From: Fistulifera solaris
Lineage: Eukaryota
Direction of reading: 5' to 3'
Length of the DNA: 64,000 bases
Assembly (NCBI GenBank): GCA_030295235.1
Contig: AP026124.1
Coordinates: 1,798,001-1,862,000 of the forward strand
Shown: one piece after another, positions 7,928 through 26,529 of the stretch
Layout: each line of letters starts with the position of its first letter
How positions within the stretch are numbered: the stretch's first letter is position 1
Made by a program: the position numbers and the translations under genes
The notes under the pieces: model-generated
Told to the model about the DNA's origin: nothing
Databases searched by the model: none
What the model saw: only the letters and a program-made list of their open reading frames with translations

Positions 7928-8019
7928 CTCTCGATAGCTCAGTTGGCAGAGCGGCAGACTGTAGAAGGACTCACTATGCATTAATCTGTAGGTCACTGGT
8001 TCGATTCCAGTTCGAGAGA
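7928..8019 (+). tRNA. trnY-GTA: tRNA-Tyr(GTA) with 19-nt intron (7965..7983)
   Basis: Acceptor stem CTCTCGA/TCGAGAG, D arm TAGCTCAGTTGGCAGAGC, anticodon stem GCAGA-CTGTAG..A-TCTGT, T arm CTGGTTCGATTCCAG; 73 nt after intron removal; downstream T-runs. Confidence 0.96.
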
Positions 8020-25362: not shown

Positions 25363-26529
25363 ATGGCAAAGGTAACAAGCGACGCAAGATTGCTGAAGGA
25401 GAGGATAAGCCCAAGGCCGTTGTCGAGAGCGAGGAAAACGATTTATCCGAAACGGAAGAAGAACCGTCAAAATCTGCCACCATCGCGACGGAGCCGTTTA
25501 TTAGTGATGGAAGATATCGAAACAAACAGCGCTGCCTTGTCTTGTGTTCCCGAGGTGTGACTGCTCGTTACCGTCATCTTTTGGAGGACTTACGAACGCT
25601 AATGCCACATCACAAGAAGGAATCCAAATTGGACTCAGGGAAAGAGGGCATCGGCCGCGCCGTCAACGACATTGCAGAGATGCGTGGTTGCAAGAGTGTC
25701 GTGCTGATTGAGTGCCGAAAGAGACAAGATGCTTATATGTGGCTAGGACGAGTCGGCGGGGGCTCGCCTGGTCCAACAGCACGTTTCCATGTCACAAACA
25801 TCCACACGATGGACGAGCTTCGACTGACAGGCAACTGCATGAAGGGTAGCCGGCCTTTTCTCACGTTCGATGAAAGTTTTAATCGCATTGGTCACCTCAA
25901 GCTACTAAAAGAAATTTTCATTGACACCTTTGGTGTTCCGCGGGGGCACCCTAAAAGCAAACCGTTCGTTGACCGTATTATGTCGTTCTACTACGCTGAC
26001 AAACGAGTAAGTTGCTGTTTTGTATTATGTCTTGTTGAAATTGCCATTGATTACAAAAATGATGAGCGTATGTCGGACCGCTGTAGTGGAATGAGAACAA
26101 CCTTCATTATTAGACTACGATGGAATGAGGCTTCATTTCTTAGGTGTGGTTCGCATCGCTGTCTCTGCTTAACTAACATCTCTTTCGTTCTAGATCTGGG
26201 TTCGTAACTATCAGATACTTGATCAGGTACCTACGACTGCGCTTGAGGCTCATCAAGCAAAGAAACAATACGGTCAAACCGAAACGACATCTTTGGTCGA
26301 AATTGGTCCTCGATTTGTCTTGGAACCCATCAGAATCTTCCGAGGTTCTTTCGGTGGTCAGTCCCTGTACCAAAACGATCATTTCATCTCTCCTAATGAG
26401 ATCAGAGCTCAAGAAAAGCGAATGAAAGGAAGAGAGTACGAAGACCGAAAAGATTCTCAGACGAAACGCCAGGAAAGGAAATCGCAGATCGTGGTCCCAG
26501 AGGATCCTCTTGCTTCTGTTTTCCGTTAA
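25363..26529 (+). CDS. BRX1: Ribosome biogenesis protein BRX1 (Brix domain); intron 26007..26193
   Basis: NKQRCLVLCSRG..RHLLEDL..PHHKKESK, NIHTMDEL..TGNCMKGSRP, HPKSKPF, IWVRNYQI, LVEIGPRF; likely start 25363 with one missing A. Confidence 0.93.
26054..26132 (+). ncRNA. Putative intronic box C/D snoRNA guiding 18S rRNA 2'-O-methylation
   Basis: Box C ATGATGA 26059..26065; guide AGACTACGATGG 26112..26123 antisense to conserved 18S CCAUCGUAGUCU; variant D box ATGA 26125..26128; second imperfect guide TATGTCGGACC; lies in a 187-nt intron. Confidence 0.7.

Follow-up and report, generated by a model that had tools for sequence, protein, structure and literature searches.

A BRX1 intron shared by diatoms carries a predicted dual-guide box C/D snoRNA for 18S A28 and U992

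The window, by which we mean the whole 64,000-nt stretch of Fistulifera solaris DNA that was analyzed, carries on its forward strand the gene BRX1, interrupted by an intron. The parts of the gene are as follows:

25363 to 26006, forward strand: upstream coding exon of BRX1 (Brix-domain ribosome biogenesis protein), from PF04427 and BRX1-named matches.
26007 to 26193, forward strand: host intron, GT..AG, 187 nt, from a joint in sequencing-run contigs and the same position in 32 metagenome loci.
26194 to 26529, forward strand: downstream coding exon of BRX1, continuing in frame (IWVRNYQ...) to the stop.

Matches to the upstream exon number 865; all of the best 120 have PF04427, and many are named BRX1. 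Two F. solaris BRX1 proteins fall in the top cluster, and the window protein is 99% identical to one of them over 165 columns. We placed the start at 25363 because the assembly misses one A at about 25367, an A that is inserted there in all four sequencing runs. With this letter restored BRX1 begins at ATG 25363, matching the public proteins (MAKGNKRR), while the frame from 25308, which is longer, probably arises only through the missing A.

The joint of 26006 to 26194 is present in contigs of three of the four runs (X2–X4), indicating that the intron is spliced. These three RNA-like runs skip the intron and, as contigs only, are uninformative for an RNA of about 85 nt; contigs of run X1, which behaves as DNA, span it. 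A branch-point-like CTAAC lies inside the intron at 26173–26177.

At 26043–26131 the intron contains an element with the parts of a candidate box C/D snoRNA:

26043 to 26045, forward strand: 5' arm of the terminal stem, GCC, pairing with 26129 to 26131 (covariation).
26047 to 26053, forward strand: box C, UUGAUUA, with U at position 6 instead of G; TGATT in 22/22 copies, directly inside the terminal stem.
26058 to 26066, forward strand: 5' arm of a predicted internal stem with its partner at 26103 to 26111 (predicted duplexes in homologues).
26061 to 26072, forward strand: D' guide, complementary to host 18S 25–36 (11 Watson-Crick pairs and one G.U).
26074 to 26077, forward strand: box D', CGGA, its GA invariant among 22 copies.
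26078 to 26089, forward strand: hairpin closing the C'/D' motif (CCGC/GUGG, loop UGUA), from folding and homologue pairing.
26091 to 26097, forward strand: box C', AUGAGAA, degenerate, from sequence and homologue alignment.
26112 to 26123, forward strand: D guide, 12/12 Watson-Crick to host 18S 989–1000.
26125 to 26128, forward strand: box D, AUGA in 22/22 copies, its A pairing with U6 of box C.
26129 to 26131, forward strand: 3' arm of the terminal stem, GGC (covariation).

A preliminary description of this DNA had proposed an intronic dual-guide box C/D snoRNA in the 187-nt GT..AG intron at 26007–26193, built from ATGATGA at 26059 (as box C), TATGTCGGACC at 26069, CTGT at 26081 (as D'), ATGAGAA at 26091 (as C'), AGACTACGATGG at 26112, ATGA at 26125 (as box D) and flanks at 26037 and 26129 able to pair. 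Every one of these motifs is where it was placed. The overall proposal is supported by diatom conservation, a covarying stem and two predicted guides; the roles of several motifs change.

Our parse rests on 22 aligned copies: the window copy, its homeolog and 20 of 24 dual-guide metagenome loci, with L030, L051, L087 and L094 omitted as duplicates and only the first tandem copy taken from L053. All 22 have TGATT near the 5' end and ATGA at the 3' end, both enclosed by a covarying stem, and for this reason we assign box C to UUGAUUA at 26047. All five pairs of the terminal stem show two-sided changes (19 cells), 88% of cells are paired across the 22 sequences, and the covariation score was above all six slid controls and was reached by none of 500 shuffles, which ignore relatedness. 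The proposed flanking stem thus finds support in covariation, and AUGA as box D in its occurrence in every copy. There it always faces box C U6, with which its A forms a U-A pair.

Box D' varies more, reading CUGA in 6, CAGA in 7, CGGA in 4, CCGA in 4 and UGGA in 1 of the 22 copies. The first pair of the hairpin that follows is Watson-Crick in 17/22 (C-G, G-C and A-U types), the five failures all falling in the Skeletonema clade, with the C' position set by a heuristic. Several homologues have UUCG, UACG or GAAA hairpin loops, and a 3-nt bulge and C' come next; the proposal of ATGAGAA as C' stands, in degenerate form. Box D is 65 nt from the 3' splice site in the window copy and 66–166 nt in 17 other copies. 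The folding energy of the window copy is unremarkable (z = -1.0).

Scanned in full against 6.5 kb of host rDNA, the intron yields its two longest antisense runs at 26112–26123 (18S 989–1000) and 26061–26072 (18S 25–36). Each stops one base short of a box of four letters with GA at its end, AUGA (26125) for the first and CGGA (26074) for the second. The host 18S was taken from its own genome, where 12 copies were scored and the L016 copy was used. By the D+5 rule, A26120 in the D guide is predicted to face host 18S U992, and T26069, at D'+5, is predicted to face A28, the U27/SNORD27/snR74 site. With host 18S as a proxy target, the D guide forms at least 11 contiguous pairs in 22/22 copies and 15/15 in five of them. 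Against the same proxy, positions +3 to +12 of the D' guide are paired in 22/22, one position alternating between U.G (17 copies) and C-G (5), with a mismatch at D'+2 in 4/22. Guide-to-box spacing is constant in all 22 copies.

Arabidopsis methylation sites from published tables fit the host 18S with an offset of 0 at the 5' end, 20 at 582–623 (5/5) and 23 at 1219–1330 (7/7); between offsets 20 and 23, A978 and U1013 both fit offset 21 alone. Host U992 therefore equals Arabidopsis U1013 and, via Am978 (yeast Am974), yeast U1009. This offset-fitted position agrees with the predicted D+5 target of the preliminary description, the U of CCAU at the yeast U1009 equivalent. As for the 18S complements it had proposed, the host does contain the exact 12-nt D-guide complement and the GGUCC stretch, and a guide role toward GGUCC is unsupported.

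Such matches could in principle be chance complementarity in an ordinary intron, or a scrap of inserted rDNA: 3 of 300 core shuffles attain 12 nt antisense to host rRNA, and the guide 12-mer also occurs at several unrelated genome sites. Because both longest runs stop just short of D-type boxes and the element is conserved across diatoms, however, the match exceeds chance. Two guides each end one base before a box, conservation takes in pennates and centrics, and to these are added the homeolog constraint and the covarying stem, so we regard this explanation as already refuted and give it practically no credence.

The preliminary description had drawn its second guide, with box C at 26059, D' CTGT and one bulge, toward the first C of GGUCC. 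That C is host C1196, equivalent to Arabidopsis Cm1219 and human Cm1272 and known to be methylated in plants and human, and an 11-bp one-bulge duplex with host 18S is possible (-17.0 kcal/mol). The unbulged A28 duplex is nevertheless stronger (-20.0 kcal/mol), and the GGUCC guide is exact in only 3/22 copies, with no conserved SNORD66-like guide for C1272/C1219 found. CTGT occurs in 1/22; it sits in the hairpin loop and holds the sole core difference between homeologs (26082), the other copy reading CAGT. ATGATGA at 26059 is present in just 13/22 homologues and is separated from the terminal stem by 13 nt, whereas every copy has TGATT at 26048; ATGATGA falls within the predicted internal stem arm 26058–26066 and the start of the A28 guide. 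The stretch claimed as the GGUCC guide instead comprises the last bases of the A28 guide, then box D' proper (CGGA), then the opening of the hairpin. We therefore consider methylation of C1196 by this element very unlikely. The second target that we predict in its place, 18S A28 (11 pairs plus one G.U), had been missed.

A28 could still be a target in pairing alone: the D guide would direct methylation, while the A28 guide served as an rRNA folding aid and another RNA methylated A28. The poor stem II pairing that host D' CGGA gives with C' AUGAGAA would fit such an idle guide, as would the separability of the two guides in L054, L056 and L062. Guide-box spacing and the GA of D' are nonetheless invariant in 22/22 copies, and active C'/D' motifs vary widely from consensus according to the available text of PMC5389607. 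Nor did non-exhaustive searches of the host genome, by pattern and with the SNORD27 family, find a second plausible A28 guide. A pattern combining an A28 guide with a following D-type box matched four sites there and two in the control; of the four, two are the homeologs and two lack boxes. We judge an idle A28 guide improbable. A sub-threshold SNORD27 family match in the host genome, L105, was rejected as its guide is missing.

Compatible with a dual-guide RNA is the further idea that the AUGA box D sets two fibrillarin registers, directing methylation to U992 and the adjacent C993. A precedent is the AUGA D' box of yeast U18, which leads to two adjacent methylations (available portion of PMC5389607). 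U18, however, additionally requires an extra base in C', and in the diatom element box C U6 pairs cleanly with the A of AUGA, a kind of compensation that restored protein binding in archaeal work cited in the accessible part of PMC6461891. A double register is thus unlikely.

A metagenome scan with the BRX1 alignment yielded 76 loci, of which 32 share the intron position, 37 are intronless there, 5 end short of the site and 2 belong to distant outgroups. Many of the intronless loci are short and probably cDNA. The alignment of BRX1 introns across diatoms that had been suggested in the preliminary description reveals conserved boxes and guides, and 29 of the 32 orthologous introns contain the element. 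Both guides lie on one element in 24 introns, which represent about 17 lineages as several loci are near-duplicates; three introns have the guides split between separate elements (L054, L056 and L062), two have an A28 guide without a U992 guide (L061 and L073), and three have neither (L034, L059 and L060, the last cut short). L034:2286-2371 (86 nt) and L059:1811-1985 (175 nt) are introns at the same position with no detectable snoRNA, which suggests loss or relocation in some diatoms. In the BRX1 tree, dual-guide loci adjoin Phaeodactylum, Pseudo-nitzschia and Cylindrotheca and also occur together with Skeletonema potamos in a clade that has full support. The dual form therefore spans pennates and centrics, in a tree with an unresolved backbone and split forms that are not rooted.

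A covariance model built from the 22 aligned copies matches 29/32 orthologous introns and no other site in the window. Five split or single-guide loci outside the training set match at 36–49 bits, and no score above 19.2 bits came from the 48 chance pattern matches or from 10 further host loci. In viral (1) and prokaryote (47) collections the dual-guide pattern gave chance matches only, 0/48 scoring with the model. An Rfam search, which the preliminary description had also suggested, returned no family at cut-off for the element; the best match on the window copy was 17.7 bits (cut-off 70, E = 5.4), to Tetrahymena TtnuCD28 (RF02303), whose consensus has a similar A28-type guide before CAGA but a different D guide.

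The host genome provides its own comparison, as a second colinear copy of the whole window lies on contig C1 with 87% identity over 61 kb of alignments. Between these homeologs 1/89 sites differ in the element core versus 14/90 in the flanking intron (Fisher p = 6e-4), and 18/122 four-fold sites differ.

Together these results point, with a probability of about 0.88, to a box C/D snoRNA at 26043–26131 that would guide 2'-O-methylation of 18S A28 from its D' guide and of U992 from its D guide. The features of the class are present: a kink-turn-capable C/D pair (variant and compensatory), a terminal stem, an internal D'/C' pair with degenerate C', and, for the 10–21-nt antisense expected just 5' of D and D', two 12-nt elements. 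We propose that box C UUGAUUA and box D AUGA would form a kink-turn in which U-A replaces G-C in stem II, and that this would bind Snu13, Nop58, Nop56 and fibrillarin. The debranched BRX1 intron would be trimmed by exonucleases to an RNA of about 85–90 nt, and methylation of A28 and U992 would follow by the D+5 rule. Residence in BRX1 could couple snoRNA output to ribosome biogenesis. The snoRNP protein names and the trimming route are textbook, as is the mechanism itself; what the locus adds is two exact predicted methylation sites for a diatom-wide family. Kink-turn, protein binding, intron trimming and D+5 methylation are covered in the available portions of PMC8053127, PMC8817022 and PMC5389607.

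The diatom-wide BRX1-intron guide RNA would thus be an addition to the known box C/D class, with A28 as a newly identified, predicted second target. Its presence offers an account of why the BRX1 intron is retained. Diatom snoRNAs are barely annotated: the Thalassiosira genome paper, in the text available, gives 7 snoRNA matches in 3 families (PMC11842555). Among the listed matches in the main texts of mostly open-access literature, we found no published description of a BRX1-intron snoRNA (the query for BRX1 and a snoRNA host intron was empty), and no diatom rRNA methylation map was among the literature matches listed. One third of intronic Ostreococcus snoRNAs lie in ribosome-biogenesis genes, according to the accessible part of PMC7671301.

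The predicted A28 target is shared with U27/SNORD27 (RF00086), snR74, AtU27 and CD18. A28 is methylated in yeast (snR74), human (U27, Am27), Arabidopsis (AtU27) and Dictyostelium (CD18), as given in the available parts of PMC8583080, PMC8053127, PMC11542601 and PMC8817022. In the Rfam SNORD27 alignment the guide lies immediately before an internal CUGA, like the diatom D' guide. Of ten loci scanned, one (L069) gave a SNORD27 match: over its 5' half, guide and D' box line up with those of the consensus, at 25.5 bits versus a cut-off of 52. The window copy gave no match; given the same D' guide and a sub-threshold score, the diatom RNA would therefore work like U27 at D' but miss the family threshold. 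It differs from SNORD27 in its boxes (UGAUU/AUGA versus UGAUGA/CUGA) and in having BRX1 as host gene. The second guide also differs, reading 18S U992 in the diatom element; Arabidopsis U27 is additionally assigned U6 A43 in the source as available, so the diatom combination of guides is a different one.

For the D guide the closest parallel is in plants, where Um1013 in helix 24 is guided by snoR20.1 in Arabidopsis and listed for tomato and tobacco. In the accessible portions of PMC8583080, PMC8053127 and PMC11542601 it has no human, yeast or Ostreococcus entry and is called plant-specific; the diatom element predicts this helix 24 modification in stramenopiles as well. Arabidopsis snoR20.1 has the same predicted helix 24 site as the diatom D guide, but it is an RNA separate from U27, in a plant gene cluster (PMC2875012, available text). 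The Rfam family snoR20a (RF01193), possibly not the Um1013 guide, has no match at the locus; its best score in the genome is 23.2 bits elsewhere, against a threshold of 42. Yeast snR79, which we take to be the guide of 18S Cm1007 in helix 24, targets C1007, whereas the spacing of the diatom D guide points two bases 3' of it, at U1009. The Cm1007 site (PMC5199042, in the part available) shares its helix 24 stretch with the predicted diatom target.

The box variant has relatives too. In Guillardia theta nucleomorph GtNM-R12-14 and in the plant snoU36a (RF01302) consensus, box D is likewise AUGA and box C carries the compensating UGAUU. AUGAUU/AUGA boxes are described as compensatory in expressed snoRNAs of the cryptophyte (G. 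theta) nucleomorph (accessible text of PMC6461891), and AUGA box D occurs in a minority of Dictyostelium CD RNAs (available portion of PMC8817022). The likeness of GtNM-R12-14, snoU36a and the Dictyostelium RNAs to the diatom element is limited to this variant. PMC4247016 and PMC5122169, in their available parts, are further papers cited for comparison.

The split loci show other arrangements of the guides, scored here against F. solaris host rRNA for all species. The BRX1 intron L054:852-1755, 904 nt long, contains five or more C/D elements. One of these is U992-only, another matches LSU A2809 (13/13, host numbering), and three are tandem A28 copies whose D guide pairs 13/13 with host LSU around A598 and is a look-alike of the U992 guide. 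Close to the 3' end of this intron a sixth copy, A28-like, can be seen. L056 and L062 keep A28 and U992 guides on separate elements of the same intron, and L053:2999-3503 contains near-identical tandem duplicates of the dual-guide element in one intron. In the 555-nt BRX1 intron L073:1395-1949 there are three C/D-like elements: one matches 18S A1112 (15/15), one is A28-only, and one has an AUGAUGA box C opposite an AUGA box D. The A28 guide of L062:3242-3334 differs from those of other diatoms at several sites. It looks more like the guide in the Rfam SNORD27 consensus, and the 18S 5' sequence of its own host may differ correspondingly.

We tentatively read these arrangements as guide evolution in progress within the diatom BRX1 intron, a scenario to which we give somewhat less than even odds. 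An ancestral RNA would have combined the universal A28 guide with a guide for a decoding-region uridine (Um1013); tandem duplication would have followed, and some lineages would then have divided the two guide jobs between separate RNAs. In L054 the freed D guide could have moved from 18S helix 24 to an LSU adenosine through few base changes, since the two rRNA sites share flanking letters. Division of labor after duplication and retargeting between subunits would be the natural reading of the sequences, whichever way the change ran.

The element also bears on gene annotation. Among the 120 listed public BRX1 proteins 106 continue into the intron at this site, and 23 of these contain peptides translated from the conserved element, which thereby exposes wrong public BRX1 gene models that extend into the intron. 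The F. solaris BRX1 models P0121 (GAX15003.1) and P0122 (GAX23724.1) run past the 5' splice site, translate the snoRNA and lack the downstream BRX1 exon.

Searches beyond BRX1 gave few further candidates. Across the whole window, Rfam at gathering thresholds found tRNA only, and family searches of the host genome with snoR38 and snoR20a returned nothing credible. A genome pattern for the variant boxes had 37 matches versus 13 in the control; of the 30 examined, three have weak LSU matches of 9–10 Watson-Crick pairs and none is a convincing guide. We rejected, for this genome, the notion of UGAUU/AUGA as the standard boxes of diatoms; its U14-like RNA has canonical AUGAUGA/CUGA.

Several smaller observations accompany these results. 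At 26087–26100 a 14-nt same-sense match to host 18S exceeds 300/300 shuffles; it is exact in the two homeologs only, overlaps C' and is probably a coincidence. A 10-nt antisense rRNA match at 26182–26191 corresponds to the polypyrimidine tract and is not followed by a box. Window positions 7928–8019 hold a tRNA gene whose anticodon loop carries an insertion that is probably an intron. The host 18S copies (G000 contigs C15, C16, C45 and C46) are scattered about 100 kb apart in both orientations and do not form one tandem array. The U14/SNORD14-like RNA is present in two copies, L140:1501-1595 (G000:C3:1675770-1675864) and L141 (G000:C4:1789708-1789802); it scores 48 bits where the cut-off is 64, its boxes are canonical and its location is apparently intronic.
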